From Promethearchaeota archaeon (GTDB lineage Archaea > Asgardarchaeota > Lokiarchaeia > Sigyniarchaeales > SOKP01), in assembly GCA_030606485.1 (NCBI GenBank), contig JAUWGH010000003.1, positions 390,001 to 422,000 of the forward strand: DNA of 32,000 nt. The letters run 5' to 3'. Below the pieces are notes generated by a model that was not told the origin of the DNA, did no database searches, and worked only from the letters and a program-made list of their open reading frames with translations. Shown in pieces: positions 15,437 through 32,000 of the stretch. Both the position numbers and the translations under genes were made by a program. Within the stretch, counting starts at the first letter, position 1. Every line of letters starts with the position of its first letter.

Positions 15437-16366
15437 TTAAAGTAATTTCCAAAAAATTTTATGATCATATAATATTTTTTTTATCTTTTTCTTCGACTCT
15501 AGATTTTCTAATCGTAATAAAATTTCATCTTTATTAAAATTATTAGAAGAAAATGTGTCAAGAATTTGTTCTTGTCTCATAGGATGTCGCTCAATTATAG
15601 ATAATACTTCCTTTTCGAAATCTGAAGAGTAAAAACCGAATTTTCCGATTTCCGGAAAATTAATGTCGTAATATACCCCAAAAATTTCATTTAATAGTGA
15701 AATAATATTTTTGCCAGGAATTTTAACCCATTCTTCAACAGGAGGTCTTATTGGAACATTTATATCGATTCTGTCTGGCTTTATTAAATCAATTTTCTCT
15801 TTAATTTTTAATAATTCTTCTTTAGAATCATTAATTCCCTTCATTATCATTATTTCTATCCAAAACTTACCTTTGAAGTTTTTTTGAAAATCTATGAACC
15901 CTTGAATCATAGCATCAAATTTAATTGATGGGTGTGGTCGATTTATTCTAATAAACGATTTCTCATCTCCTGCATCTAAGCTAGGTAAAACAACATCGGC
16001 ATGCATAAGAATATTTCTAATCTCTAAGTCATATAATAAAGCACCGTTAGTGATTACGCAGACTGGCTTCTTAGAAAACTCTTTTACCTTTAAAATTAGT
16101 ACTCCCAAATCTCTATATAAAGTAGGTTCACCGCTTCCTACAAATGTAATGTAATCTATATTGTTTTCATTTTGTTTAATAGCAGTTTTCATTTCTGCAA
16201 TGATTTCATTTTTTGGAACGTAATTCTTTCGTTCATTGGTAAAATTAGTGGTTCTTCCTAATTGACAATAAATACATTGATAGTTGCAAGTTTTTGAAGG
16301 GAGGGGATCAATTCCCAATGAACTTCCTAATCTCCTGCTGGGAACAGGTCCATATACATACTTCAT
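15437..16366 (-). CDS. Radical SAM protein (COG0731-type, YGPVPSRRLG family)
   Basis: YGPVPSRRLGSSLGID N-terminus, CNYQCIYC cluster motif, GSGEPT, ITNG, PSLDAG. Confidence 0.9.
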   Translation of the reverse strand: MKYVYGPVPSRRLGSSLGIDPLPSKTCNYQCIYCQLGRTTNFTNERKNYVPKNEIIAEMKTAIKQNENNIDYITFVGSGEPTLYRDLGVLILKVKEFSKKPVCVITNGALLYDLEIRNILMHADVVLPSLDAGDEKSFIRINRPHPSIKFDAMIQGFIDFQKNFKGKFWIEIMIMKGINDSKEELLKIKEKIDLIKPDRIDINVPIRPPVEEWVKIPGKNIISLLNEIFGVYYDINFPEIGKFGFYSSDFEKEVLSIIERHPMRQEQILDTFSSNNFNKDEILLRLENLESKKKIKKILYDHKIFWKLL

Positions 16367-16496
16367 TGATATAATCTTTAAAATATATTCTTTAAAATAA
16401 ATTTACGATCATTACAAAATATATTTAAATATGTTTTCTTTACTTGAAAAATGATGCTTTTCTCTTTTTGGCAATTCCATTACATTCACTTTTCTT

Positions 16497-16985
16497 TTAA
16501 TCCTCATTCTTTTTATATTTATGAATTGCACGTTTTAGAGTTCTTACTGCCAATTCTGTGCAATGCTTATGATCTACTGGTAATCCTTTCAAAGCTTTAT
16601 CAATATCTTCAGGACTTAGCTTTTCTGTATAATCTATAGGTTTTCCCTCAATAAGAAGCATTGTTTGGCTTGCTGTTGCAATACAAGCTTTGCATCCATC
16701 TGAAATAAAATTTGCTTTCTCGATTATATTATCTTTAATTTTTAAAAAGAATTGCATTGTATCTCCGCATGGACCTGTATAAGATTGCGAAACTGATATT
16801 TTTTTATCTGGAAGCTTGCCCCAATTTCTTGGGTTTTGAGATAAATCAACAATATACTCATTATATACTTCTATTTCTTTTTTTATAATTTCTTTTTGAA
16901 GCTTATCTATATGTTTATCAAAACTATCTTTAGCCATTTTCTTTTTACTAATTCTTAAATTTAATTTTTTATCTTCATTTTTCAA
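16497..16985 (-). CDS. IscU/NifU-type Fe-S cluster scaffold protein
   Basis: PRNWG, GPCGD, DGC..C and HKHC motifs (three scaffold Cys). Overlaps the mrp stop by 11 nt. Confidence 0.85.
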   Translation of the reverse strand: MKNEDKKLNLRISKKKMAKDSFDKHIDKLQKEIIKKEIEVYNEYIVDLSQNPRNWGKLPDKKISVSQSYTGPCGDTMQFFLKIKDNIIEKANFISDGCKACIATASQTMLLIEGKPIDYTEKLSPEDIDKALKGLPVDHKHCTELAVRTLKRAIHKYKKNED

Positions 16986-17781
16986 TAATTTTTCGAATTT
17001 TATTTACAGTAGCTTTAAAAGCTTTTCCACTTTCAGAATTAGGATATTTTAAAGTAAAAGGTAATCCTTGATCGCCTTGCTGACCTATTTCTGTTTCGAA
17101 AGGAATTTTACCTAGCAATCTGATCCCAAAATCTTTTACAGCTTTTTCTGCGCCTCCACTTCCAAAAATTTCTATAAACTCACCGCATTTTGGACACTTA
17201 AATCCTGACATATTTTCGATAATTCCAAGAACGTTTCTTTTCATTATTTGAGTCATTTTAATCGTTTTTCGAGCATCCATTAACGCCACCTCTTGCGGAG
17301 TTGTTACCACAATTACATTCTCATCTGGAATCAATTGTAAAATATCTAAAATTTCGTCAGAAGTTCCCGGCGGCAAATCACAAACTAAATAATCGAGTTC
17401 ACCCCATATAGCATCTCCTAAAAATTGTCTTAGTGCAATCATTTTCATAGGTCCCCTCCAAATAACTGGTTCATCTGGATTCTGAGTTAGAAAAGCCATA
17501 CTTAAAACTTTTAAGTTTAAAGGTCCATCAATGGGATAAAATTTATTAGATCCTGGATCGATTCTTGGTTTTAATTCTGGATTTATACCTAACATCTTTG
17601 CCACATTAGGACCAGTAATGTCGACATCTAATATTCCTACTCTTAACCCTACGCTAGCTAAACTGATCGCAAGATTAACAGCAACTGTGGTTTTTCCTAC
17701 ACCTCCCTTTCCAGAAATGATGACGATCTTATACTTTATCATTTCCATATTTTCTTTAATATTTATTAATCTCTCATCCAT
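16975..17781 (-). CDS. mrp: Mrp/NBP35 (ApbC) Fe-S cluster carrier ATPase
   Basis: SGKGGVGKTT, DVDITGP, WRGP, DYLVCDLPPGTSD, VTTPQ, ENMS and CPKC motifs. The true start may be upstream (see findings). Confidence 0.93.
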   Translation of the reverse strand: MDERLINIKENMEMIKYKIVIISGKGGVGKTTVAVNLAISLASVGLRVGILDVDITGPNVAKMLGINPELKPRIDPGSNKFYPIDGPLNLKVLSMAFLTQNPDEPVIWRGPMKMIALRQFLGDAIWGELDYLVCDLPPGTSDEILDILQLIPDENVIVVTTPQEVALMDARKTIKMTQIMKRNVLGIIENMSGFKCPKCGEFIEIFGSGGAEKAVKDFGIRLLGKIPFETEIGQQGDQGLPFTLKYPNSESGKAFKATVNKIRKIIEK

Positions 17782-17849
17782 TGCCTTTCTTTTTTGGTCA
17801 ATTTGTTCTTGTGTAATCTCCTCTCATCTTTTTATGATTTTATTAATTT

Positions 17850-17857
17850 TTTTTATA
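17850..17857 (-). promoter_or_regulatory. TATA-box candidate for the mrp-iscU-radical SAM unit
   Basis: TATAAAAA on the - strand, 23-30 nt upstream of an ATG at 17827. Confidence 0.45.
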
Positions 17858-17869
17858 GGCTTTAAGTTG

Positions 17870-17883
17870 TGAATAATTATTCA
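17870..17883. promoter_or_regulatory. Perfect 14-bp palindrome TGAATAATTATTCA (operator candidate, copy 1)
   Basis: Directly read. An identical copy starts at 18049. Confidence 0.65.
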
Positions 17884-18045
17884 TTTCTTTTAATGATATC
17901 CCTTTCATTTTATAAATATGTTGTGAATCATTTTAAATGCCTATTGAATTGAAATATGAACAGAGACTAATTTAAGGTTAAAAACTTATCTAAAATTCTT
18001 AGTTTTTCAAAAAAGTTATAAAATATAATAAATAGATCAAATATT

Positions 18046-18065
18046 TTTTGAATAATTATTCAAAA
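18046..18065. promoter_or_regulatory. Perfect 20-bp palindrome TTTTGAATAATTATTCAAAA (operator candidate, copy 2)
   Basis: Directly read. It lies just upstream of TTTATAAA (18069-18076), facing the DtxR gene. Confidence 0.65.
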
Positions 18066-18221
18066 GCTTTTTATAAAAATTTTTCCTTATTATATACTAG
18101 AAAATTAATAAAATAATAAAAAAGTGTTTAATACCTATTAAGACGGTTATGCTATTGTGCTAATTATTTAATTCTTATGTATGCATAAAGTTTGAAAAGG
18201 GTATAAGGTTGAAGAATAAGT

Positions 18222-18605
18222 ATGGATAAAATAACTGAAAGTTTTGAAAATTATTTAAAAGCTATTTATTTAATTTCGAAAAAAAATAGGGGTGGCTGGG
18301 TTTCCAATTCGGAAATATCCGATTTTTTAGGGGTTAAACCACCATCAGTAACCAGTATACTGCATAAATTAAAACAGAAAGATTTTGTTAATTGGAAGCC
18401 TAGAAAATCGTTAAGATTAACCTCAAAAGGAAAAATAGTTGCTCAAAATATTATTGATAAATATAATCATTTAAAACATTTTTTTAAGGATGTTTTGAAA
18501 TTAAAGGATGCATTATTATTAGAAAATTTGTGCTGTGGGATTGAGCATCACATTACTCCAGAGGTTTCTAAAGCGTTAGAGAATCTTTATATTGATCAAA
18601 TATAA
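18222..18605 (+). CDS. DtxR/MntR-family metal-dependent transcriptional regulator (no C-terminal FeoA/SH3 domain)
   Basis: ENYLKAIY, EISDFLGVKPPSVTSILHKL (wHTH), LTSKG, C-x2-EH dimerisation/metal motif. Confidence 0.9.
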   Translation: MDKITESFENYLKAIYLISKKNRGGWVSNSEISDFLGVKPPSVTSILHKLKQKDFVNWKPRKSLRLTSKGKIVAQNIIDKYNHLKHFFKDVLKLKDALLLENLCCGIEHHITPEVSKALENLYIDQI

Positions 18606-21443: not shown

Positions 21444-21676
21444 AATAAATTTTATAACTTTTTCCTTTTAAAAATGAATATGAATACTTATTATGAAATA
21501 TTATTTGTATTTTTGTAATTTATAACATATATTTAGAAAGTAGGATATCAAAAAGATCAAAATAATGCAGAATTACAATAAATAAAGCCAGATTCTTAAA
21601 TACTTCACACTCTTAATAATATTATTAGTATTTAAACTTTTATAAATAACGCTGCTGAAAATAGTAATCATAATTT

Positions 21677-21690
21677 TGATTAATTATTCA
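21677..21690. promoter_or_regulatory. Near-perfect copy of the palindrome (TGATTAATTATTCA; operator candidate, copy 3)
   Basis: One mismatch to TGAATAATTATTCA, same TTT left flank as copy 2, and 9 nt before the FAD-oxidoreductase GTG start. Confidence 0.55.
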
Positions 21691-21698
21691 TAATTAAG

Positions 21699-23195
21699 GT
21701 GAAAAAATTAATGGTTGAAATAGAAAAAACTGTTGGCGAAGAGGGTAAAGAACTAGTGATTCACAAAAAGATACCAAATCATGGGGCTGTATTAAAAGAA
21801 TTGATTGATATAGTTGGTGAAGATTATGTAATGGATGGGTCTGCAAGTCTATTTGTCTATTCGGGGGATATGACCGAAAATGTCGCTCATATGCCTGAGT
21901 TTGTAGTGGCACCCATAACCGCTGATGAAGTTCAAAAGATCATTTTACTGGCTAACAGAGAAAAAATACCTGTAGTTCCATTCGTATCAGGTAGCAACTT
22001 AGGAGGTCTTGCAATTCCGCTTGAGGGAGGTATTATTGTTGATCTGAAGAGAATGAATAAAATATTAGAGGTAAATGAGCGGGATCTGTATGCAATTATA
22101 GAAGCAGGTGTTACTTTCGCAGATATAAAAGATTATCTTGATAAGAATCATCCAAATTTAGTTTATACTTATACTTATGCTACACCAGCTGCAGGAGTTG
22201 TTCCTAACGCACTTTTGGAAGGACTTGTTACATTATCTGCAAAATATGGAGCAACTGTTGCATTTATTAATGGTCTTGAGGCAGTACTTCCAACGGGTGA
22301 AATTGTAAAGGTAGGATCTTGTGCCACAAGCAAATATTGGTTTAGTCGCAATCCTCTGCCTGATCTAGTCGGACTTTTTACTTCTTGGCAAGGTATGACT
22401 GGCATTGTTACAAAGCTTGCGATTCAACTCGATCCTAAACCAGCTTACACAGGCATTAAAATGATAATGTCAGATGAGGTACACGAATCTTTTCAATTAA
22501 TGGAAGAATTGGGTAGAGCACAAATTTTAGATAATCTCATCATGTTTAATTGGGGATTGGTTTTGGCGGTAATTCAAATGCCTAGAGAAGTTGCTGGAAG
22601 TGAGAAAGATGAGGCTTCACCAACTATATATTTGGAAATGGATTACTCAGCAATAAATACAATAAAAGAACTTGAAGCAAAAGAAGAAATAATAGAGACA
22701 CTTGCTAAGAAATATGAATGTGGTCTCTGGGATTATAAAGATGTAGGAGATGGGATAACTAAGGTTCTTGATGTCCCGATGACTTTTGCAGGATTATTTA
22801 CTCACGGACCTGGTGGTTTAACTTGGATTGGTGCTTATGGTCCTTGCAGTCAGTATGAAACTGCCTATAATGTTGCAAATGAAGTATTCTCTAGACATCC
22901 AAGATTTACTCCATGGCTTTATGCAAAAACCTTTAAACACGGACACTTTGGAGCGATGAGAACCCTCATTGGCTTTGATAGATCAAATGCAGAAGAAGTG
23001 AGAGAGACCAGAGAACTTATGAGAGAAATGGCAAAAGGGTTAATGGATATTGGATATATACCTTATAAAACACCAGTAGAGATTTCTGAAATGGTACTAA
23101 AGAGGAGTGACCCGAATTTCGCATTATTCATGAAAAAAATCAAGAATGCATTAGACCCTAATCGAATAATGAATCCAGGAAGGTGGGGATTATAA
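21699..23195 (+). CDS. FAD-linked oxidoreductase (VAO/PCMH/GlcD superfamily)
   Basis: PCMH-type FAD-binding domain: VVAP..ADEVQ, GSNLGG, GGIIVDLKRMNKI, EAGVT, GLEAVLPTG, GIVTK. C-terminal ALDPNRIMNPG. GTG start after AAGGT. Confidence 0.9.
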   Translation: MKKLMVEIEKTVGEEGKELVIHKKIPNHGAVLKELIDIVGEDYVMDGSASLFVYSGDMTENVAHMPEFVVAPITADEVQKIILLANREKIPVVPFVSGSNLGGLAIPLEGGIIVDLKRMNKILEVNERDLYAIIEAGVTFADIKDYLDKNHPNLVYTYTYATPAAGVVPNALLEGLVTLSAKYGATVAFINGLEAVLPTGEIVKVGSCATSKYWFSRNPLPDLVGLFTSWQGMTGIVTKLAIQLDPKPAYTGIKMIMSDEVHESFQLMEELGRAQILDNLIMFNWGLVLAVIQMPREVAGSEKDEASPTIYLEMDYSAINTIKELEAKEEIIETLAKKYECGLWDYKDVGDGITKVLDVPMTFAGLFTHGPGGLTWIGAYGPCSQYETAYNVANEVFSRHPRFTPWLYAKTFKHGHFGAMRTLIGFDRSNAEEVRETRELMREMAKGLMDIGYIPYKTPVEISEMVLKRSDPNFALFMKKIKNALDPNRIMNPGRWGL

Positions 23196-24376
23196 CTGAA
23201 ATAGAAAATTGGACACATATGTGTACCAGATGTGGAACTTGCCATAATGTATACAAACTTAAATTATGGGAAAAAAGCATTCCTGATTGGTTAACAATTT
23301 GTCCTGCAGGTGAAAAATATGGGTTTGAACCTTACTTTCCTAGTGGTAAAATGTGGATTGCCAGAGGAATAACTGAAGGAAAGTTGGAATTGGATGATCC
23401 TGAACTTTTAAAGATAATCTATAGTTGTACTTTATGTGGAAACTGCGAAACGCAATGTCAAACAGATATACTTAAGGATCATATAACAGAGATAATTGAA
23501 ACATTAAGAGAGAGGATTGTAGAAGCTGGATTAGGACCTATGCCGAAACAAAAGGAATTTGGAGAATGGACTAAAAAAGAACACAACCCTTATTTGGAAC
23601 CTCACGAAGATAGACTGAATTGGCTCCCATTCGATAAATCCGAATTACCTGAGCAAGCAGATATAATATATTTTGTAGGTTGTACGTCTTCTTATAGACA
23701 GAAGAACATAGCATCAGCCACCGCAAATATTTTAAAAAAATTGGGTGTCAACTTTACAATTTCAAAGGATGAATGGTGTTGTGGCTCCCCACTACAGAGA
23801 ACTGGACAAGTCAAAATTGCAAAGGAGTGCGCAGAGCACAATATTGAGATACTGAAAAAAACCGGTGCCAAACGAGTTGTAACATCATGCGCTGGATGTT
23901 ATAGAATGTTGGTCAAAGATTACAAAGAGAGATACGAGTTGGATTACGATTTTGAAATTATTCATTTCCCTGATTTCCTTTTGGATTTATTAAATAAAGG
24001 AGAATTAAAACTCGAAAAGAGTATCAACAGAACGATAACATACCATGACCCATGCCACATCGGACGACATATGGGAATATATGATTCGCCCCGAGAGATG
24101 TTAGAGAAAATTCCTGGTATTAAGCTGGTTGAAATGGAGCGAATCAAGGAAAACGCTTGGTGCTGTGGATCTGGAGGAGGAGTAAAATCAGGTTTCAGTG
24201 ATTTGGCGATGTTTGCTGCGAAGGAAAGATGTGATGAGGCTATGAAAACAGGTGCTCAAGCTTTAGTATCTACTTGCCCTTTCTGCTGGCGGAATTTAAA
24301 TGACGCAATTGAGGTGAATAACCTTAACCTAAAAATGTACGACCTTGTTGAACTCATTTGGGAAATAATTAAATAA
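23183..24376 (+). CDS. (Fe-S)-binding protein, GlcF/HdrD-like, with two [4Fe-4S] and two CCG domains
   Basis: CTRCGTC...CP, CTLCGNCETQC, YFVGC, WCCG, SCAGC, YHDPC, WCCG, TCPFC. Overlaps the FAD gene by 13 nt (translational coupling). Confidence 0.92.
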   Translation: MGIITEIENWTHMCTRCGTCHNVYKLKLWEKSIPDWLTICPAGEKYGFEPYFPSGKMWIARGITEGKLELDDPELLKIIYSCTLCGNCETQCQTDILKDHITEIIETLRERIVEAGLGPMPKQKEFGEWTKKEHNPYLEPHEDRLNWLPFDKSELPEQADIIYFVGCTSSYRQKNIASATANILKKLGVNFTISKDEWCCGSPLQRTGQVKIAKECAEHNIEILKKTGAKRVVTSCAGCYRMLVKDYKERYELDYDFEIIHFPDFLLDLLNKGELKLEKSINRTITYHDPCHIGRHMGIYDSPREMLEKIPGIKLVEMERIKENAWCCGSGGGVKSGFSDLAMFAAKERCDEAMKTGAQALVSTCPFCWRNLNDAIEVNNLNLKMYDLVELIWEIIK

Positions 24377-24488
24377 AAAGAGTGGATTAAAAAATAAAAA
24401 GGAAATGAGTCATTAAATAAATAATAATAAAAAAATCAATAAATAGTAGTATAAAAAAAATAAATAAATACATAAAAAGGGAAGATAA

Positions 24489-25373
24489 ATGTGTAGAATC
24501 TGTGTACAATATGGAGATGGGAAAAAGTGGTATTTAAACCCAAAGAACTACAGTGATGAAGTAATCTACGGTGAAATGACAAAACTAAAAGTGGATGATA
24601 CAATGGTGGGTCAACTTCTTGACCTAAAGGGCACAATACAGGAAATTTTTAGCACTGCGAAACGCTTCAAATATGACATAGGTTTTGGCGAAAAGGTAGA
24701 TCTTATTTTTCAAGATTTGGATGATGATATAGCGCAAACAATGCGGGAAGGCCTTCCAGATCTCATGGATCAAGCAGTCGGCGGGCAGGTGGTTCCACTC
24801 GAGGATGTCGAGAAAATAATTGATCTAAATGAAGGAGACATTTATATGCATCCATGCATATGCCGGAAATATTACGGTGGAATAGAAAAAGCGTGCTGTA
24901 TGTCACTAAGACCATTGGCTAAAGACTTACAGAAAAATGTTGGATCCTGGGATACTCCAAACAAAATGGTTTCTAAGGAAGAGGCAAAAGAGAAGTTAAG
25001 GGAATTTGACAAGGAAGGCTTGGTTCATGGAATCTTTTGGGCTCCGATCCCAGTTCCTGCTGAAATTTGTAATTGCGAATATCCGTACTGCATAGCACTT
25101 AGAGGAAGGCTCCACTATAATGTAGTGGATGCATATAGAAAAGGAGAATATGTTTCTCTCGTGGATCCCGATAAATGTAATGGGTGTGGTGGCACACCTC
25201 GTTGTCAATCTAAATGCACATTCGGTGCCTTGAAATACTCACCGACTAATGGCAAAGTAAGTGTAAATCAGATGCAGTGCTGGGGTTGCGGTGTATGTAG
25301 AACGGCATGTCCAAACAATGCTATAACACTTGTACCTCGTGAAGAATTTCCCCAATTAAAAAATGTATGGTGA
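24489..25373 (+). CDS. Cys-rich 4Fe-4S dicluster (ferredoxin-domain) protein
   Basis: N-terminal MCRIC, central CICRK..ACC and ICNCEYPYC, C-terminal CNGCGGTPRCQSKC and CWGCGVCRTACP. Confidence 0.85.
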   Translation: MCRICVQYGDGKKWYLNPKNYSDEVIYGEMTKLKVDDTMVGQLLDLKGTIQEIFSTAKRFKYDIGFGEKVDLIFQDLDDDIAQTMREGLPDLMDQAVGGQVVPLEDVEKIIDLNEGDIYMHPCICRKYYGGIEKACCMSLRPLAKDLQKNVGSWDTPNKMVSKEEAKEKLREFDKEGLVHGIFWAPIPVPAEICNCEYPYCIALRGRLHYNVVDAYRKGEYVSLVDPDKCNGCGGTPRCQSKCTFGALKYSPTNGKVSVNQMQCWGCGVCRTACPNNAITLVPREEFPQLKNVW

Positions 25374-25382
25374 TATTAAAAA

Positions 25383-25637
25383 ATGGTAACAATAAGACCT
25401 GTAATAAACTACGACAAGGAGAAATGCGGAGATCCGAGTGCTTGTCTGAAGTGTATAAGGATCTGCCCCTATTGTGTACTAGCTTATATACCATTAGAGA
25501 CTCCGGAACCAGGTAAGCCACCTGAAGACTGGGTCGTTGTTTCAACATGCCGCGTTATGTGTACTTATCCTACATGCAAATTATGTGTTGAGGTCTGTCC
25601 AAATGACGCTCTTAATATCACTATTCCCAGCTGGTAA
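25383..25637 (+). CDS. Small ferredoxin-like protein
   Basis: 84 aa with CGDPSACLKCIRICP and CTYPTCKLCVEVCP. Confidence 0.8.
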   Translation: MVTIRPVINYDKEKCGDPSACLKCIRICPYCVLAYIPLETPEPGKPPEDWVVVSTCRVMCTYPTCKLCVEVCPNDALNITIPSW

Positions 25638-25666
25638 GTTTTTATGAATTTATTATCAAAATATTC

Positions 25667-25674
25667 TTTTTTTT
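25667..25674 (+). terminator. T8 terminator candidate
   Basis: T8 tract about 30 nt after the small ferredoxin stop. Confidence 0.35.
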
Positions 25675-25708
25675 ATTTAAAAGTCATTAAAATAATAAGC
25701 GAATTTTC

Positions 25709-26377
25709 TTGATCAGTTTAATAAGCATGAAAGGCCTTTGTGCTGCTACAGCAGCCTATTTTTCTTCACAAGGCTATTTTACAAGACGGAACTTTGAGAC
25801 ACAAGGATTAAAATCTGTGGATATGGTTTGTATCATGCCTAGACTTTCTGACCTGAAGAAGAGGATTAAAAGTAAATATTTTGTTCCTTCAGGTGTTCTA
25901 TATACCCTAATAGGTCAGGGGTGGAAGACCAGCGAGGAGATAGCAGTGGAAATAGGTTCGGATACTCTATTTGTTAGCTCCATATTGGATGAGATATATA
26001 AGGATGGATGGGTGGAAAAGAAAAATGAGACAGACAAAGTTCACTGGACACTTAAAGATTACAGGATTCCTTCTAAAGATTGTGTAATGGCGCATTGTAG
26101 GTATAAAAAATTCATGGAGTTCTATGAAAAGCTCAGCGACTTTGATGGATGTTATAATAAGATGTATTTTATTTTTCCTTACCCAATAGACGAGGAGTTT
26201 ATGGATTTATGCCATGAAAAAGGAATAGGAATTCTGATTTTCTATGAAAGAGTAGGATTGTTTAAAGAACTACTTCCGCCAGAGTTAAAAACGGTCACTA
26301 ACTTAAAAGTATATGCAAACCTCTGCGAGGTTATCATCAAGGAGAATCTTCTATACAGATCAATAGATAGCATTTAA
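25709..26377 (+). CDS. Hypothetical protein: PD-(D/E)xK-like fold with an inserted winged helix and degenerate catalytic residues
   Basis: SVDMV, then a wHTH-like segment (WKTSEEIAVEIG..VSSILDEIYKDGWV), then MAHCR...KMYFIFP...CHEKGIGIL. TTG start; ATG at 25727 is possible. Confidence 0.6.
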   Translation: MISLISMKGLCAATAAYFSSQGYFTRRNFETQGLKSVDMVCIMPRLSDLKKRIKSKYFVPSGVLYTLIGQGWKTSEEIAVEIGSDTLFVSSILDEIYKDGWVEKKNETDKVHWTLKDYRIPSKDCVMAHCRYKKFMEFYEKLSDFDGCYNKMYFIFPYPIDEEFMDLCHEKGIGILIFYERVGLFKELLPPELKTVTNLKVYANLCEVIIKENLLYRSIDSI

Positions 26378-26400
26378 GGAGATGTAAAGAGGGTATCATC

Positions 26401-27174
26401 ATGGCTTTGAGGAAAGCATTAACATTATCAGTCTCTGGTAAAGGGGGTGCGGGAAAGACAACAATAACTGCATTATTACTGAAAATATTATTGGAATCTG
26501 GTAAACAGGATATCCTTGTGATAGATGCAGACCCCGCTATGAATTTGCCGAATGTTCTTGGGATTGAATTGAAGGGAAAGACCACTTTAGGGATGATTCT
26601 AGATAAGAAGAAAGATGAATTAGAGTTAGGAACGCACTTCTACGGAAAACTTTTAGAGGGGGAAATCTGGGAGAGTATTATCAACCAGAATGGTTTTGAT
26701 ATGCTCATTATGGGACGAACAAAAGGTGAGGGTTGTTATTGCTCCCTTGATAGTTTTGCCGCTATAATAATTGAATCTCTAACCAAGATGTATGATTTTA
26801 TTCTTATTGATTTCTATGCAGGATTTGAACATCTTAGCCGAAGAACCGACAGATTTGCTGATATCCTTTTAATTGTAACAGATCCGTCTAAAATGGGATT
26901 TGGGACATCTCGCCGCATTAAAGAACTAATTGAAGAAGTTAATATATCGTTTAAAGATGTTTTTTTGGTGGGAAATAGATTTAATATAAAATTAGAACGA
27001 CAACTTTCCAATTTTTCTAAAGAGATCGGAGTTAAATATGCAGGAATAATTCCATACGACCAGAATGTTGCAGAATTCAATATGAAAGGTAAATCACTAA
27101 TGCATATACCTAAAGATTCATTGGCATTTATTTTTGCAAAAAGATTTTATGAAATAATATTCAAAAAGTTCTAA
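26401..27174 (+). CDS. CooC/AcsF-type P-loop ATPase (metal-insertion/maturation factor)
   Basis: GKGGAGKTT, IDADP..NL, GEGCYC (CxC metal site), AGFEHLSRR, GNR. Confidence 0.88.
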   Translation: MALRKALTLSVSGKGGAGKTTITALLLKILLESGKQDILVIDADPAMNLPNVLGIELKGKTTLGMILDKKKDELELGTHFYGKLLEGEIWESIINQNGFDMLIMGRTKGEGCYCSLDSFAAIIIESLTKMYDFILIDFYAGFEHLSRRTDRFADILLIVTDPSKMGFGTSRRIKELIEEVNISFKDVFLVGNRFNIKLERQLSNFSKEIGVKYAGIIPYDQNVAEFNMKGKSLMHIPKDSLAFIFAKRFYEIIFKKF

Positions 27175-27397
27175 ATTCTACACGATTATTAAATAACTCG
27201 GAGAATTAATCAATAATTTACTGTTAATTTTTACCATATGAGCTTATTTTACCAACTCATAAAGATATAATGCTTTTTAAAAAAAAATCAATATAAATTT
27301 ATATATAAAAGATGAAATTATTAAATAATTTTAGAATAAAAAAAATAACTATAAAAAAAACTAAAATAAAATAAATAAAGACTTTATTAATGGAGAA

Positions 27398-29269
27398 TTG
27401 AAAATGTATGGATATATGGGAAAGATTTTAAGAATAGATTTATCGAATGGAAAAATAACTGAAGAATTTCCTGATGAAAATACTTTAAAAATGTATTTAG
27501 GTGGGTCTGGACTAGCAACTAAATATCTCTTTGATGAAGTTAAAAAAGGAATAGATCCATTAGGTCCAGAAAACAAGTTAATATTCATGACTGGCCCCTT
27601 GACAGGAACTACATCTCCAAGCACCGGAAGATACAGTGTAGTCGCCAAGTCTCCACTTACTGGTATATGGGGACAGGCAAATTCAGCTGGTTTTTGGGGG
27701 AGAGATTTTAAGAGATCAGGTTTTGATGGAGTTATATTCGAAAATATCTCGCCAAAACCAGTCTATCTTGTTACAGACGAGGGAAAAGCAGAGCTAAGGG
27801 ATGCCAAACATCTTTGGGGTAAAAATACTTCAGAAACCACAAGATTAATTAAAGAGGATCTCGGAAAGAAATTCAATATATCATGTATAGGTATTGCTGG
27901 AGAAAATCAAGTTAAATATGCAGCAGTCATGAATGATTGTGATGAACCAAACTATGGTCGAGCTGCTGGAAGATGTGGTATGGGAGCTGTAATGGGTTCA
28001 AAGAATTTGAAAGCCATTGCTTCAAGAGGGACAATAAAGATCGAAGTGGCTAATCCAGAACAATATAGGGAAGAAGCCAAACAAAGGTATGAGTGGGTTA
28101 ATCAGAGTTTATTGAAAATGACTATTGAAGTATATGGAACAGCTGCTGTGGTTGATATAACGAATAATTTAGGTGGGTTCCCCACAAAAAATTGGCAAAC
28201 TGGTGTCTTTAAAGGTGCAGACAAAATAAATGGAACTACAATTAATGAAACAATTCTTGTCGAGCGAAAACCTTGTTTTGCATGTCCAATCGCCTGTGGA
28301 CGTATTTGTGAAGTTAAAGAAGGACCTTATAAAAGTAAAGGAGAGGGACCTGAATATGAATCATTAGGAGCTTTAGGTAGTATGTGTGAAGTTGATAATT
28401 TAGAGGCGATTACTTTGGCACATTTTCTATGTAATGAGTATGGTCTCGACACGATTTCTACCGGAAATACAATCGGTTTTGCCATGGAGTGTTATGATAA
28501 AGGAATTTTGACCAAAGAAGACACGAGCGGATTAGAATTAAATTGGGGTAATGCAGATCTCATTATTGATCTTGTTCATAAAATAGGTAAAAGGGAAGGT
28601 ATTGGAAATATGTTGGCTGAAGGAACAAAAAGGATGGCAGAAAAACTGGGTAAAAATTCTATAAAATTTGCTATGCAAGTAAAAGGTTTAGAACTTCCAG
28701 CCTACGATAGCAGAGCTGCTAAGATAACTGGGTTAGCATTTGCAACTGCAAATAGAGGTGGAGACCATATTACAGCTTACATAGAAGGTCCGGCTTTCTT
28801 AGCAATGCCCTTTCTAATCGTTGATGAGGCTGATATTGGGGATCCACTCCAAGAGATTCCGGAGACAACTAAAGTTGTCAAAGAATTTGAAGATGCATTT
28901 GGTATTTTTGATGCTATCGGTGGATGTAAATTTATGGGAATGGTTTTAACTGGAGAAGATTGGGCATCATTAATATCGAAACTTATGGGCTATGAATTCA
29001 CTGTAAAAGACTTTAGAAAAACAGGTGAAAGAATCTATAATCTTGCAAGAATTTTTAATATTAGAGAAGGAATAACTCGAGCTGATGATACACTTCCAGC
29101 TCGTTTATTAGAGGAACCAATGCCCGAAGGCCCTGCTGAAGGACATGTAGTAAATTTAGACCCACTCTTAGACGCTTATTACGAATATCGAGGATGGGAC
29201 AAGAATGGTAAACCAACTCCTGAGAAATTAAAAGAACTCGGATTAGATTGGGTTATTAATCAAATTTAA
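27398..29269 (+). CDS. aor: Tungsten-type aldehyde:ferredoxin oxidoreductase
   Basis: YGYMGKILRIDLS, GRCGMGAVMGSKNLKAIA, CFACPIAC (C293/296/300), GPEYES, DTIS, NRGGDH, DAIGGC (C510, fourth cluster ligand), DDTLP, YYEYRGW. Confidence 0.95.
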   Translation: MKMYGYMGKILRIDLSNGKITEEFPDENTLKMYLGGSGLATKYLFDEVKKGIDPLGPENKLIFMTGPLTGTTSPSTGRYSVVAKSPLTGIWGQANSAGFWGRDFKRSGFDGVIFENISPKPVYLVTDEGKAELRDAKHLWGKNTSETTRLIKEDLGKKFNISCIGIAGENQVKYAAVMNDCDEPNYGRAAGRCGMGAVMGSKNLKAIASRGTIKIEVANPEQYREEAKQRYEWVNQSLLKMTIEVYGTAAVVDITNNLGGFPTKNWQTGVFKGADKINGTTINETILVERKPCFACPIACGRICEVKEGPYKSKGEGPEYESLGALGSMCEVDNLEAITLAHFLCNEYGLDTISTGNTIGFAMECYDKGILTKEDTSGLELNWGNADLIIDLVHKIGKREGIGNMLAEGTKRMAEKLGKNSIKFAMQVKGLELPAYDSRAAKITGLAFATANRGGDHITAYIEGPAFLAMPFLIVDEADIGDPLQEIPETTKVVKEFEDAFGIFDAIGGCKFMGMVLTGEDWASLISKLMGYEFTVKDFRKTGERIYNLARIFNIREGITRADDTLPARLLEEPMPEGPAEGHVVNLDPLLDAYYEYRGWDKNGKPTPEKLKELGLDWVINQI

Positions 29270-29303
29270 TAGAGATAAAACTTAAGCATCTAATATAAAA
29301 TAG

Positions 29304-31019
29304 GTGAAACGTTTGGTTGAAGAAAAAAAAATAACATACGCGGATAAACCTTGGTTTAAAAGTTATTTCGTGGGGCCATCCAAACTTCCAAAAACCATGG
29401 AGCCATATCCTAAAATATCTGTTTACCAGTTCCTCGAAGACGCTGCAACTAACTATCCTAGCAATGTTGTATGCGTCTATTTAGATAATGAAATGACTTA
29501 TGAGGATTTAAAGCTCCAAGTAGATAAGTTAGCAACCGCATTTGCGGATTTAGGTGTGAAGAAAGGTGATAGAGTTGCAACAATTCTTCCAAATTGTCCC
29601 CAGTTCATCATATGTGATTATGCAATAATGAGATTAGGGGCAGTGCATGTTCCACTTAGTATATTACACAAAGCTCCCGATGTGTTGTACGAACTAGATG
29701 AATCTGGAACTGAAACAATAATCTGCTCTTATAGGCGTCTCAAGCTGGTTAATGAAATAAAAGATAAAACAAAACTTAAGACAATAATTTATACGCCGAC
29801 AAAATTATTTCCAGATTATTCTTTGCCTGAAATGAAAGAAGTAACTGATGCTTATCTACTAGAAGACTTAATAGAAAAATATGAGCCTAAACCTCCAAAA
29901 GTTGATATAAATCCCATAGAAGATTTGGCACTATTGCCATTTACTGGAGGCACAACTGGAGTCCCTAAAGGCACCATGCAAACTCATTACAACATAACCA
30001 CAAATGTGATTCAGACATTACAGTGGATGATGCATCCTTTAAAATCAGCAGTTATTGGAAAAGCTTCTTTAGTAATATGTGTTCCTATTTTCCATCAATA
30101 TGGACATTGGGCTGTACATGCCTCCATTTCTTGGGGTATTCGCATATTTTTAATGGATCCAAGAGATATTGATAAAATGATTGAAATAATAAAAAAAAAT
30201 CGTCCTTTTATGATCATTGGCGTTCCGACCCATTTTATGTTATTTCTTACTAAAGATATTCAGAGATTGCCAGTTTTTTTCTTTTCTGCTGCTGCTGCTC
30301 TTCCTGAAGAGGTTGCTAAAAAGTTTGAGAAGAAAATTGGAGTTCCAATGGGTGAAGGCTATGGTGCGACAGAAACAACGGGGGGTACTCACTTAAATCT
30401 TACAGCACTTTCAAAAGTTACAGGATTTGTTTCAAAAGTTAAAAGATCTATTGGAATACCAGTTCCTGATACGGAAGTTAAAATTGTAAACCTTGAGACT
30501 GGTGAGGAAGTCCCAATTGGGGAAACCGGTGAAATATGGATTCGTGGTCCGCAAGTAATGAAAGGTTATTGGCCAACGCCAGGTAAAGGTTTAACCGAAG
30601 ATGGGTGGCTTGCTATGGGTGATATTGGAAAAATGGATGAAGATGGCTTTTTCTACATCGTTGACCGTATCAAAGATATGATTAATGTATCAGGGATGAA
30701 AGTTTATTCGAGGGTAGTGGACGATGTTTTATATGAATATCCAGGTGTCAGTGAGGTAGGTGTTATTGGAATTCCAGATCCAGACCGCCCAGGAAGTGAA
30801 AGGGTAAAAGCTTTCATAACATTAAAACCAGAGTTCGAAGGTAAAGTTACTTCTGAAGAAATAATTGAATACTGTAAAGAGAAGCTTCCACCATACGCTA
30901 TACCGAAGTCTGTTGAGTTTAAGAGAGATCTGCCTAAGACCCTTGCTATGAAAATCTTAAAGAGAAAACTAAGAGAAGAAGAAATCGATAAGATGAAAGC
31001 GAGAGGAGAAATTAAATAA
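29304..31019 (+). CDS. Long-chain fatty acid-CoA ligase (AMP-binding family)
   Basis: FTGGTTGVPKG, GEGYGATET, GEIWIRGPQVMKGYW, GDIG, IVDRIKDMINVSG, KILKR. GTG start. Confidence 0.92.
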   Translation: MKRLVEEKKITYADKPWFKSYFVGPSKLPKTMEPYPKISVYQFLEDAATNYPSNVVCVYLDNEMTYEDLKLQVDKLATAFADLGVKKGDRVATILPNCPQFIICDYAIMRLGAVHVPLSILHKAPDVLYELDESGTETIICSYRRLKLVNEIKDKTKLKTIIYTPTKLFPDYSLPEMKEVTDAYLLEDLIEKYEPKPPKVDINPIEDLALLPFTGGTTGVPKGTMQTHYNITTNVIQTLQWMMHPLKSAVIGKASLVICVPIFHQYGHWAVHASISWGIRIFLMDPRDIDKMIEIIKKNRPFMIIGVPTHFMLFLTKDIQRLPVFFFSAAAALPEEVAKKFEKKIGVPMGEGYGATETTGGTHLNLTALSKVTGFVSKVKRSIGIPVPDTEVKIVNLETGEEVPIGETGEIWIRGPQVMKGYWPTPGKGLTEDGWLAMGDIGKMDEDGFFYIVDRIKDMINVSGMKVYSRVVDDVLYEYPGVSEVGVIGIPDPDRPGSERVKAFITLKPEFEGKVTSEEIIEYCKEKLPPYAIPKSVEFKRDLPKTLAMKILKRKLREEEIDKMKARGEIK

Positions 31020-31062
31020 TAATCACGAATTAATTTTCCAATCGTAGTTATCAATTTAAAAA

Positions 31063-31078
31063 TTTCCTTTATTTTTTT
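31063..31078 (+). terminator. T-rich terminator candidate after the acyl-CoA ligase
   Basis: TTTCCTTTATTTTTTT about 45 nt after the stop. Confidence 0.35.
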
Positions 31079-31164
31079 ATATAATTTCTAGTAATGATAA
31101 AAATGATCATAATCTTCAATGTATATGAATCCTGCATCACTTTCAGTTGATGGAAATGAAATAA

Positions 31165-31458
31165 ATGACCGTATATAGGATCAAGGTAATAGTAAAATTC
31201 TTTCTCCAATTTAGAGACTTTTTAAAAAAAAGTAAAATAGAAATTGAACTTAAAGAAGGAGCAGATATTTTCCAGGTTTTGGAGTCCATTTGTAATTTAT
31301 ATAATTTACGAGAGAAAATATTTAACGAGAAAAACGAACTTAGACAATGGATTAGGATATTGAAAAATGGAAGACAAATCAAATTTTTAAATGGCATTAG
31401 AACTAAACTTAGGCATGGAGATGTAATAGCACTGTTCCCACCTACAACTGGTGGATAA
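31165..31458 (+). CDS. MoaD/ThiS/SAMP ubiquitin-like sulfur-carrier protein
   Basis: Beta-grasp pattern, ILKNGR, GDVIALFPP and free C-terminal Gly-Gly (TTGG). Confidence 0.92.
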   Translation: MTVYRIKVIVKFFLQFRDFLKKSKIEIELKEGADIFQVLESICNLYNLREKIFNEKNELRQWIRILKNGRQIKFLNGIRTKLRHGDVIALFPPTTGG

Positions 31459-31486
31459 TATTACTTAGGTAGTTTTATAGATAATA

Positions 31487-31502
31487 TTTTTTTTTATTTT
31501 TT
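31487..31502 (+). terminator. Poly-T terminator candidate after MoaD/SAMP
   Basis: T9-A-T6 about 30 nt after the stop. Confidence 0.45.
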
Positions 31503-31628
31503 ATATAAAAACAAAATTATTTAATAGAATCAAATCTAAAATAAATTTAATAAAATCAAAAAGCTAAGAAATTTAAAGTAAATAAATATTCAAAACTTTT
31601 ACTAAAAAAAATAAAGAGAGTGAATGTT

Positions 31629-32000
31629 ATGGCAAAATTTGCTACAGATGAGTGGGCTGAACAATATGCTAAAGCCCTTAATGAAAACGAGGAATATAGG
31701 GCAGCGGCTGGGCCCAAAGGTTTTCCACCCGACGGGTGGGAAGGAGATTATATTTTTGTAATTGAGCCAAGCGGAAATTTAGATCATAAAATAGAAATGT
31801 GGATAGGACTATACCACGGCGATTGCACGGGAACTAAAATCTTAAAAAAGGAAGATAAATATCAACTTATAAAATCAGGAGAGAAGGCTCCAGAAGGTGT
31901 CATTGGAGTTGAATTTATCTATTCCGCAACCTATGATAACTGGGAAAAGATATTAAAGAAAGAATTGGATGCTGTTAAAGCGTTGTTGAAAGGACAAGCG
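31629..32000 (+). CDS. SCP2 sterol/lipid-binding domain protein (partial, runs off the window end)
   Basis: Read by hand: MAKFATDEWAEQYAKALNENEEYRAAA...WEGDYIFVIEP...GLYHGDC...EFIYSATYDNWEKILKKELDAVKALLKGQ, the archaeal SCP2 pattern. An in-frame GTG at 31620 is an alternative start. Confidence 0.8.
   Translation, partial: MAKFATDEWAEQYAKALNENEEYRAAAGPKGFPPDGWEGDYIFVIEPSGNLDHKIEMWIGLYHGDCTGTKILKKEDKYQLIKSGEKAPEGVIGVEFIYSATYDNWEKILKKELDAVKALLKGQA

Follow-up and report, generated by a model that had tools for sequence, protein, structure and literature searches.

In the peroxisomal route of eukaryotes, fatty alcohols and phytol are processed by an alcohol dehydrogenase, a fatty aldehyde dehydrogenase, an acyl-CoA synthetase and the SCP2/SCPx thiolase. 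Little is known of the ways in which anaerobic archaea of sediments, where Asgard archaea are abundant, attack hydrophobic alcohols, ether lipids or isoprenoids. The described systems closest to the genes considered here are the aldehyde oxidoreductase (AOR) of Pyrococcus furiosus, the flavoprotein/Fe-S subunit pairs of glycolate and D-lactate dehydrogenases, the anaerobic p-cresol upper pathway, and CooC1, the Ni insertase of CO dehydrogenase (CODH) in Carboxydothermus hydrogenoformans. MoaD-like genes are known from the AOR operon of Aromatoleum aromaticum (aorD/aorE, PMC6365974). The present analysis concerns a run of ten genes in a window of 32,000 nucleotides from a Promethearchaeota archaeon (assembly GCA_030606485.1, contig JAUWGH010000003.1, positions 390,001 to 422,000; G000:C8:390001-422000 in our numbering). 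The source genome comprises 3.75 Mb in 13 contigs and is an estimated 100% complete. Together with an adjoining 138-aa gene, the ten genes make up an accessory Asgard block, some 11.5 kb long, that is acquired or lost as a whole. It consists of module A, from an FAD flavoprotein to a CooC-type ATPase, and module B, from AOR to an SCP2-like protein, and is a compact, transferable and testable candidate for the anaerobic attack on lipids and alcohols.

Composition and distribution of the block

The ten consecutive plus-strand genes reported in a first-pass annotation were all found in place, from position 21699 to beyond 32000, by translation and domain search (Table 1). After the SCP2 gene, the 138-aa, TatD and URO-D genes lie on the opposite strand; thus, the plus-strand run stops at SCP2. 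The block itself starts near window position 21476. Translation probably begins at ATG 21711 in the flavoprotein gene, with AGGTGA located 8 nt upstream, and probably at ATG 27404 in the AOR gene. The 138-aa gene was considered as a relative of SCP2 and rejected (Pfam E 0.047; in BLASTP, neither the 135-aa SCP2 protein of locus L040 nor the SCP2-like protein of the window was similar).

Table 1. The ten genes of the plus-strand run, in window coordinates
Product	Position	Strand	Assignment
VAO/PCMH-superfamily FAD flavoprotein (FAD)	21699-23195	+	Pfam FAD_binding_4, E 1.9e-27; weak FAD-oxidase_C match
HdrD/GlcF/TfrB-like CCG Fe-S subunit (CCG)	23183-24376	+	two CCG domains and 2x[4Fe-4S]
FeS294, 294 aa	24489-25373	+	ferredoxin domain at residues 225-281 only
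Fd84, 84-aa ferredoxin	25383-25637	+	Pfam Fer4 and Fer4_6, both weak
222-aa protein	25709-26377	+	without Pfam or NCBIfam match
CbiA/CooC-type P-loop ATPase (CooC)	26401-27174	+	PDB match CooC1 3kje
AOR	27398-29269	+	AFOR_N and AFOR_C
AMP-forming acyl-CoA ligase (ACS), FadD-like	29304-31019	+	AMP-binding and C-terminal domain
MoaD/SAMP sulfur carrier	31165-31458	+	TIGR01687 above cut-off; C-terminal GG
SCP2-like protein, 158 aa	31620-32093 (last 93 nt past the window end)	+	Pfam SCP2 just below cut-off

An orthologue of the flavoprotein occurs in two of 154 genomes of the order, and in a first set of 40 relatives no orthologue exceeded 42% identity. The genes flanking the block share 82-99% identity with their counterparts in a genome of the same genus (G002), in which the amidohydrolase and TatD genes are located 67 bp apart. 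This indicates that the genes from FAD through SCP2 as well as the 138-aa gene are absent there. At 65-96% identity, the block was found again in a number of diverged Asgard assemblies. A genome of another genus (G142, locus L022) harbors the order FAD-CCG-FeS294-Fd84-222aa-CooC-[leucine-rich-repeat (LRR) protein]-AOR-ACS-MoaD-SCP2-138aa at 67-81% identity between different flanks. Four metagenome contigs (L028, L029, L030 and L042) show full synteny including the flanks and lack MoaD, and L038 has the gene order of the window. The arrangement in L037 is permuted to AOR-ACS-MoaD-SCP2-(82 aa)-FeADH-FAD-CCG-FeS294-Fd84-FeS294'-Fd84'-222aa-CooC, with identities of 66-87%. These metagenome loci overturned the view that three unrelated modules are juxtaposed only in this genome. 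Lack of conserved gene order had been named beforehand as a refuting observation; the order is kept in diverged lineages, next to the one permuted arrangement.

Parts of the block were found as well. L033 and L040 contain FAD (84-86%)-CCG-FeS294-Fd-222aa-CooC, with thiolase and DUF35 genes next in line and an SCP2 gene nearby. The four-gene unit FeS294-Fd84-222aa-CooC occurs by itself or preceded by a PALP/ACT gene in L031 (Jordarchaeaceae), G020 and L039; in G020 it is located on a different contig from the AOR block. Genomes G014 and G020 harbor module B alone, in the context of DUF1512, AOR (79-82%), the full ligase (68%), SCP2 (52-68%), HAD and PPDK genes. AORs of 79-82% identity were also detected in G004 and G023, where the contigs end inside the ligase and inside the AOR, respectively, and DUF1512 lies upstream of AOR in G014, G020 and G023. 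In the Freyarchaeial contig L041 (Freyrarchaeum guaymaensis JAUQZD020000031, L041:5449-8647), remnants corresponding to FAD residues 3-129 and CCG residues 329-397 surround an inserted gene for a 693-aa flavoprotein of the amine-oxidase/DAO type. They are followed by FeS, Fd, 222-aa and CooC orthologues, the last split into two ORFs of 73 and 159 aa, and then by thiolase/DUF35, a paralogous AOR with Fe-dependent alcohol dehydrogenase (Fe-ADH), and a ligase. Either the module is decaying in this contig or the assembly contains errors.

The FAD and CCG genes overlap by 13 nt, and AOR and ligase are separated by 34 nt. Oligo-T tracts of at least five residues were located 3' of the Fd84, CooC, ACS and MoaD genes, and none of this length in the spacers CCG-FeS294 and AOR-ACS. 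The spacer between CooC and AOR measures 223 nt and contains T-tracts and TATA-like boxes. The tracts had previously been read as evidence for several transcription units. Their presence stood, but at a local GC content of 12-22% they are weak evidence for the limits of such units, and a division into several units rather than one is only hinted at.

Predicted functions of the components

The AOR matches AFOR_N (262 bits, 3e-78) and AFOR_C (483 bits, 6e-145) and aligns with the P. furiosus enzyme 1aor over residues 3-616 (2.7e-160). Its translation contains CFACPIAC, which corresponds to the CxxCxxxC cluster motif, and GGCKF. By sequence the protein belongs to the tungsten-type, archaeal single-subunit clade; cofactor and aldehyde substrate are predicted. 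The orthologues are 79-96% identical, and the ligase gene is next in every one. The ligase contains PF00501 (285 bits, 1e-84) and PF13193 (61.6 bits), and its best PDB match is Archaeoglobus fulgidus FadD-1 (3g7s, 2.6e-62), whereas benzoate-CoA ligase reaches just 1e-41. Long-chain models rank top among the NCBIfam matches, all of which remain below their cut-offs (PRK08314, 378 vs 705 bits; PRK06187, 373 vs 476 bits), so that the earlier label of a long-chain ligase is not shown. The sulfur carrier ends with TTGG and exceeds the cut-offs of TIGR01687 (77 vs 49.5 bits) and of the SAMP1 model NF041918 (66.6 vs 60 bits). MoaD is an optional member of the block, being present in L022, L037 and L038 and absent from L028, L042, G014 and G020. 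In the SCP2-like protein, the Pfam SCP2 match is restricted to residues 98-142 (E 4.6e-4, 20.9 bits vs cut-off 21.3); orthologues with 52-92% identity follow the ligase in G014, G020, L025, L028, L037 and L038. AOR, ligase and SCP2 thus form a conserved unit, which is predicted to be an ordinary one for the conversion of aldehyde via acid to acyl-CoA. The proposed feeding of the AOR-ligase step into beta-oxidation is in agreement with this conservation and with the 13 acyl-CoA dehydrogenases and 6-7 3-hydroxyacyl-CoA dehydrogenases encoded in the genome.

The flavoprotein harbors a PCMH-type FAD domain (PF01565, FAD_binding_4) at residues 66-206, which scores 96 bits against a cut-off of 26.4. 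Its nearest solved relatives are PCMH (1dii, the best PDB match with 6e-34), eugenol oxidase and VAO, in a range of 6e-34 to 1e-21, whereas D-lactate dehydrogenase and LctD rank lower at about 1e-20. The alignment with 1dii covers just the FAD domain and the C-terminal 74 residues. Matches to NCBIfam models of the GlcD, D-lactate and YdiJ type span residues 29-283 only, which is the FAD domain. They stay far below the cut-offs for GlcD (TIGR00387, 111 vs 568 bits; NF008408, 85 vs 897 bits), YdiJ (32 vs 1350 bits) and GlcE. Hence the FAD subunit is not the lactate, glycolate or glycerol-3-phosphate dehydrogenase that had been considered as a refutation. The residues Tyr95, Tyr473 and Arg474 of PCMH form its phenolate-binding triad. 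In the HMMER alignment to 1dii, Tyr473 corresponds to Tyr456 and Arg474 to Lys457 of the flavoprotein, and Tyr95 falls into a gap, which leaves the triad incomplete. No cytochrome domain was found in the ten genes or their flanks, and the partner of the flavoprotein is the CCG Fe-S protein. As judged from these comparisons, the flavoprotein is neither a GlcD-type 2-hydroxyacid dehydrogenase nor a complete 4-phenol oxidase and is classified as an uncharacterised subfamily of the VAO/PCMH group. With just 161 clusters (50% identity) at E<1e-30 among 1.8 billion representatives, this subfamily is small. Orthologues with 81-92% identity are present in L022, L028, L033, L037 and L040, and the CCG gene is next in every one.

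The CCG protein matches PF02754 with 130 bits over two stretches and contains an N-terminal Fer4_8 domain (39.5 bits; 2x[4Fe-4S]). Its Cys motifs are all invariant across eight sequences comprising orthologues and paralogues. The closest named relative is TfrB, whose NCBIfam cut-off of 385 bits is not reached (242 bits). A structure prediction of a complex of CCG and FeS294 gave a score of 0.00, which speaks neither for nor against binding.

FeS294 contains 16 invariant Cys residues in an alignment of 56 homologues. Eight of these (C2, C5, C123, C125, C137, C194, C196 and C201) are located in the N-terminal 218 residues, encoded at 24489-25142 of the window, and a ferredoxin domain with 2x[4Fe-4S] makes up the C-terminal part. 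The AF2 model is of high confidence for the whole protein (pLDDT 93) and for the N-domain (pLDDT 93.6). When the N-domain was folded alone and compared with solved structures, no match was obtained (best Foldseek E 0.24, best VIA Z 3.5), which does not prove the fold to be new; the full model yielded matches through the ferredoxin domain only. At least 708 homologues exist in Asgard archaea, Chloroflexota and Thermodesulfobacteriota, and protein atlas searches with FeS294 and the 222-aa protein returned unnamed or 'ferredoxin' clusters only. Fd84 possesses two Cys motifs of atypical spacing. In every locus examined, including those of Dehalococcoidales, where the pair occurs alone, and Helarchaeota, where an FeS277-Fd85 pair is flanked by two AMP-ligases, the gene directly behind FeS294 encodes a small ferredoxin (about 80 aa). 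FeS294 is predicted to carry about four clusters and Fd84 two. With its hundreds of archaeal and bacterial homologues, the FeS294-Fd84 pair is a conserved unit worth biochemistry even if the modules are independent.

Three further observations were made on this pair. In L037 (10001-12459) it is tandemly duplicated, the copies sharing 79% and 76% (FeS294) and 83% and 81% (Fd84) identity with the window. Between window positions 24489-26377 and L028:10001-11860, identities amount to 79% for FeS294, 86% for Fd84 and 79% for the 222-aa protein, whereas the rest of L028 is 91-96% identical. This suggests recombinational replacement or faster evolution of the FeS294-Fd84-222aa segment. A search of the source genome with FeS294 yielded 55 first-look candidates, many of them of about 360-390 aa and matching residues 100-290; one is encoded just downstream (367 aa, L013:5666-6769). 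By sequence, this set represents a strongly expanded, unnamed Fe-S protein family of the order.

The family labels of the first-pass annotation were mostly retained. For the 222-aa protein, labelled there as a winged helix-turn-helix (wHTH) protein, a MarR match with an E-value of just 0.14 was obtained. The protein is possibly a wHTH regulator. The 37 clusters of its family stem exclusively from Asgard assemblies and share 63% identity or more with the query. Its gene was detected in three of the 154 genomes searched and without exception has Fd84 on one side and CooC on the other. The CooC-type ATPase gives a full-length match to CooC1 (3kje, 2.4e-22), with which the Walker A sequence GKGGAGKTT and the Cys-x-Cys metal motif (GCYC) align. 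One paralogous CooC' (in contig C27 of G020) adjoins a CdhC-like gene; a kinship of the 222-aa protein with this CdhC-like protein was rejected, as no similarity was found. The lack of a CODH gene in the block, together with the constant neighbours (222-aa protein, FeS294/Fd84), indicates that the client of this ATPase is probably a different one. Like the Fe-S pair, the Asgard-only pair of 222-aa protein and CooC deserves biochemical study irrespective of a link between the modules. The earlier notion that the four middle genes simply provide AOR with electron carriers and cofactor support was not borne out.

Genomic neighbourhood and paralogous clusters

The source genome encodes 12 paralogous FAD proteins, 10 AORs and about 16-19 ligases, and in such a paralogue-rich genome adjacency by itself means little. 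SCP2-family proteins of three unrelated sequence types are located near module A and its paralogues, where thiolase/DUF35 pairs, AMP-ligases and Fe-ADH also recur. These recurrent neighbours indicate a hydrophobic substrate. One paralogous cluster, in contig C272 of G002, has the order FeS294'-Fd84'-SCP2-FAD'. Another (L027, G020:C27:12000-26000) contains on the minus strand genes for a CdhC-like protein of 261 aa, CooC', FeS294', Fd84', a radical SAM/SPASM protein, an arginase-family protein, FAD' and CCG'; two genes of the HGD-D type (2-hydroxyacyl-CoA dehydratase-like) are oriented divergently to this cluster.

A second AOR locus of the genome (G000:C12:77833-85073; L014:3833-11073) comprises a 921-aa protein in which ferredoxin, GltD-like NAD(P)H flavoprotein and CCG domains are fused, an AOR and a 165-aa Fer4_11 protein resembling AorA. 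The convergent ligase at this locus is the closest paralogue (40%) of the window ligase, and a branched-chain amino-acid ABC transporter adjoins it.

Radical-SAM, NifU, Mrp/NBP35 and DtxR genes occupy positions 15437-18605 upstream of the block. This set is missing at the syntenic site of G002 (L043), where ECH and ThyA-like genes are about 1 kb apart, and a corresponding set is present together with the FAD-to-SCP2 block in L028 and L042. Across these three comparisons, the Fe-S biogenesis/iron-regulator set co-varies with the Fe-S-rich island. Perfect copies of the palindrome TGAATAATTATTCA are located near the DtxR gene (17870-17883 and 18049-18062), and a copy with one mismatch lies at 21677-21690, 9 nt before the FAD ORF. 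Five sites with at most two mismatches occur in the window compared to 1.1 expected, a number reached in two of 100 shuffles. The region in front of the FAD orthologue of G142 (L022:1020-1340) contains no such site. A DtxR operator in front of the FAD gene was not adopted.

Possible coupling of the modules and comparison with described systems

In the preferred reading, modules A and B are coupled on one hydrophobic substrate stream and module A supplies the aldehyde used by module B. Because lipid-type neighbours recur and the permuted locus L037 keeps the modules adjacent, this reading is favored, with a probability of roughly 45%. The flavoprotein, seated on the HdrD-like CCG subunit, would dehydrogenate a C-H or C-OH bond of a probably hydrophobic substrate, and the electrons would pass from the CCG subunit to FeS294 and Fd84 as dedicated carriers. 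The CooC-type ATPase may mature a metal centre of module A, and the 222-aa protein may regulate this module. An aldehyde formed by module A from an alcohol, or via oxidative ether cleavage, would then be oxidized to the acid by the tungsten AOR with reduction of ferredoxin, and the AMP-forming ligase would convert the acid to acyl-CoA. The SCP2-like protein would carry the hydrophobic ligand, and MoaD, where present, would serve tungstopterin synthesis. The acyl-CoA product is expected to enter the beta-oxidation enzymes of the genome. A more specific proposal for module A is oxygen-independent lipid oxidation, in which a VAO-type attack beside the ether or hydroxyl oxygen of a lipid delivered by SCP2 would release a fatty or isoprenoid aldehyde, with electrons leaving via CCG and a four-cluster protein of novel fold bearing a metal centre installed by CooC. 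Candidate lipids would be alkylglycerols, archaeal isoprenoid glycerol ethers, phytol and phytanol. This proposal is improbable as it stands. The first-pass annotation had named long-chain or aromatic substrates; no fatty, isoprenoid, ether or aromatic assignment is possible.

Several observations weigh against the coupling of the modules. The block consists of two modules, each of which is able to stand alone: module B occurs without module A in four related genomes, and FeS294-Fd84-222aa-CooC is likewise found by itself. The route is therefore not the complete, indivisible one claimed before. The LRR gene that separates CooC and AOR in G142 is unrelated to the block. As the modules are separable and all A+B loci share 65-96% identity, their adjacency could reflect shared recent descent instead of selection and possibly traces back to few independent events. 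Nine of the 12 FAD paralogues are each paired with a separate CCG protein in contexts that are unrelated, and no copy other than that in the window is near an AOR. The Fe-ADH gene adjoining the AOR block in G020 and L037 is a possible source of aldehyde without module A. The cap domain of the flavoprotein cannot be aligned to any characterised enzyme, so that oxidation of alcohols or ethers is expected only at the level of the family. TfrB, the named protein nearest to the CCG subunit, belongs to thiol:fumarate reductase, which makes a thiol/disulfide partner or a reductive role possible. Neither a CODH nor another known client of CooC is encoded in the block, and the orthologous loci likewise contain no CODH/ACS genes. 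Alternatively, the modules would be two or three unrelated, merely co-inherited units that came to lie side by side once in an ancestor and were then passed on by descent or transfer. The AOR-ligase-SCP2 unit would then use or detoxify aldehydes of any origin, for example from amino-acid catabolism or from alcohol catabolism via Fe-ADH, and module A would be an independent dehydrogenase or electron-transfer system with a substrate of its own. The 223-nt spacer with its T-tracts and TATA-like boxes fits such independence, and with the numbers of FAD, AOR and ligase paralogues given above chance neighbours are not rare. However, the modules are still adjacent in the permuted L037, the whole block was lost or gained within one genus and lies between different flanks in another, module A precedes thiolase/DUF35 and SCP2 where AOR is missing, and paralogous FAD clusters likewise carry SCP2 or ligases. 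Independence of the modules is regarded as less likely than their coupling and is the most serious alternative to it.

Two other explanations concern the kind of chemistry. An aromatic upper pathway resembling that for p-cresol, in which a PCMH-like step converts a 4-alkylphenol or benzyl alcohol to the aldehyde, AOR forms the acid and the ligase the aryl-CoA, would suit the nearest solved relatives of the flavoprotein and the alignment of Tyr473-Arg474 with Tyr456-Lys457. AORs oxidize aromatic aldehydes well (PMC6365974). However, Tyr95 lies in a gap, Arg is replaced by Lys and the cap domain is unaligned, the block lacks a cytochrome c subunit, and the ligase is nearest to the FadD type and not to benzoate-CoA ligase. 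In addition, BamA/Oah (107 vs 464 bits) and BcrB (136 vs 487 bits) do not reach their cut-offs in the genome, and the SCP2 and thiolase/DUF35 neighbours suit lipids at least equally, which makes the aromatic pathway very unlikely. Slightly less probable still is the opposite electron flow, with AOR reducing acids and alcohol dehydrogenase making alcohols, or with FAD-CCG acting as a terminal reductase that re-oxidizes the ferredoxins of AOR via Fd84/FeS294. The Fe-ADH next to the AOR block and the similarity of the CCG subunit to TfrB, part of a reductase, are compatible with this direction, and AORs are reported to reduce non-activated acids with low-potential donors (PMC9295118). However, the AMP-forming ligase, whose position directly behind AOR is conserved (here at 34 nt and without a T-tract), has no role in acid reduction, and SCP2, the thiolases and the large beta-oxidation set indicate catabolism.

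Literature searches on Asgard AOR-ligase genes, CooC-AOR maturation, VAO-HdrD and SCP2-AOR combinations and ether-lipid or phytol degradation in Lokiarchaeia yielded no description of the cluster, and a 2026 paper on WOR classification is silent on acyl-CoA, MoaD and Asgard neighbours. In module A, families already known are joined to a Cys-rich domain without a structural match and to a CooC lacking a CODH client.

Compared to described systems, the AOR resembles that of P. furiosus (1aor) in that both AOR domains are full length and the Cys motif of the [4Fe-4S] cluster is present. A MoaD-like gene near AOR is shared with aorABCDE of A. aromaticum (PMC6365974), whereas AorA and AorC genes are absent here, an AMP-ligase and an SCP2-like gene are conserved behind AOR, and MoaD is dispensable in close relatives. 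Like GlcDEF, the D-lactate dehydrogenases of the Dld-II/LdhAB type and E. coli YdiJ, module A joins a FAD_binding_4 flavoprotein by translational coupling to a protein of 2x[4Fe-4S] and two CCG domains. It differs from these enzymes by the failed equivalog cut-offs, by a VAO/PCMH-like C-terminal motif (GY..YK) and by the addition of two Fe-S proteins and of a CooC ATPase. This ATPase has the length, the deviant Walker A motif and the Cys-x-Cys of CooC1, but no CODH gene is located in the block. The logic of flavoprotein, aldehyde oxidation and CoA ligase would be that of the anaerobic p-cresol upper pathway, from which the locus is distinguished by a W-AOR in place of the NAD-dependent aldehyde dehydrogenase and by the absence of ring-reduction markers at cut-off in the genome. 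In the order of its predicted steps and in the presence of a lipid carrier, the block resembles the eukaryotic route for fatty alcohols and phytol. This likeness is an analogy only, as the enzymes are unrelated and oxygen-independent: a W-AOR would take the place of the aldehyde dehydrogenase, and a flavo-Fe-S enzyme would stand for, or beside, the alcohol dehydrogenase.

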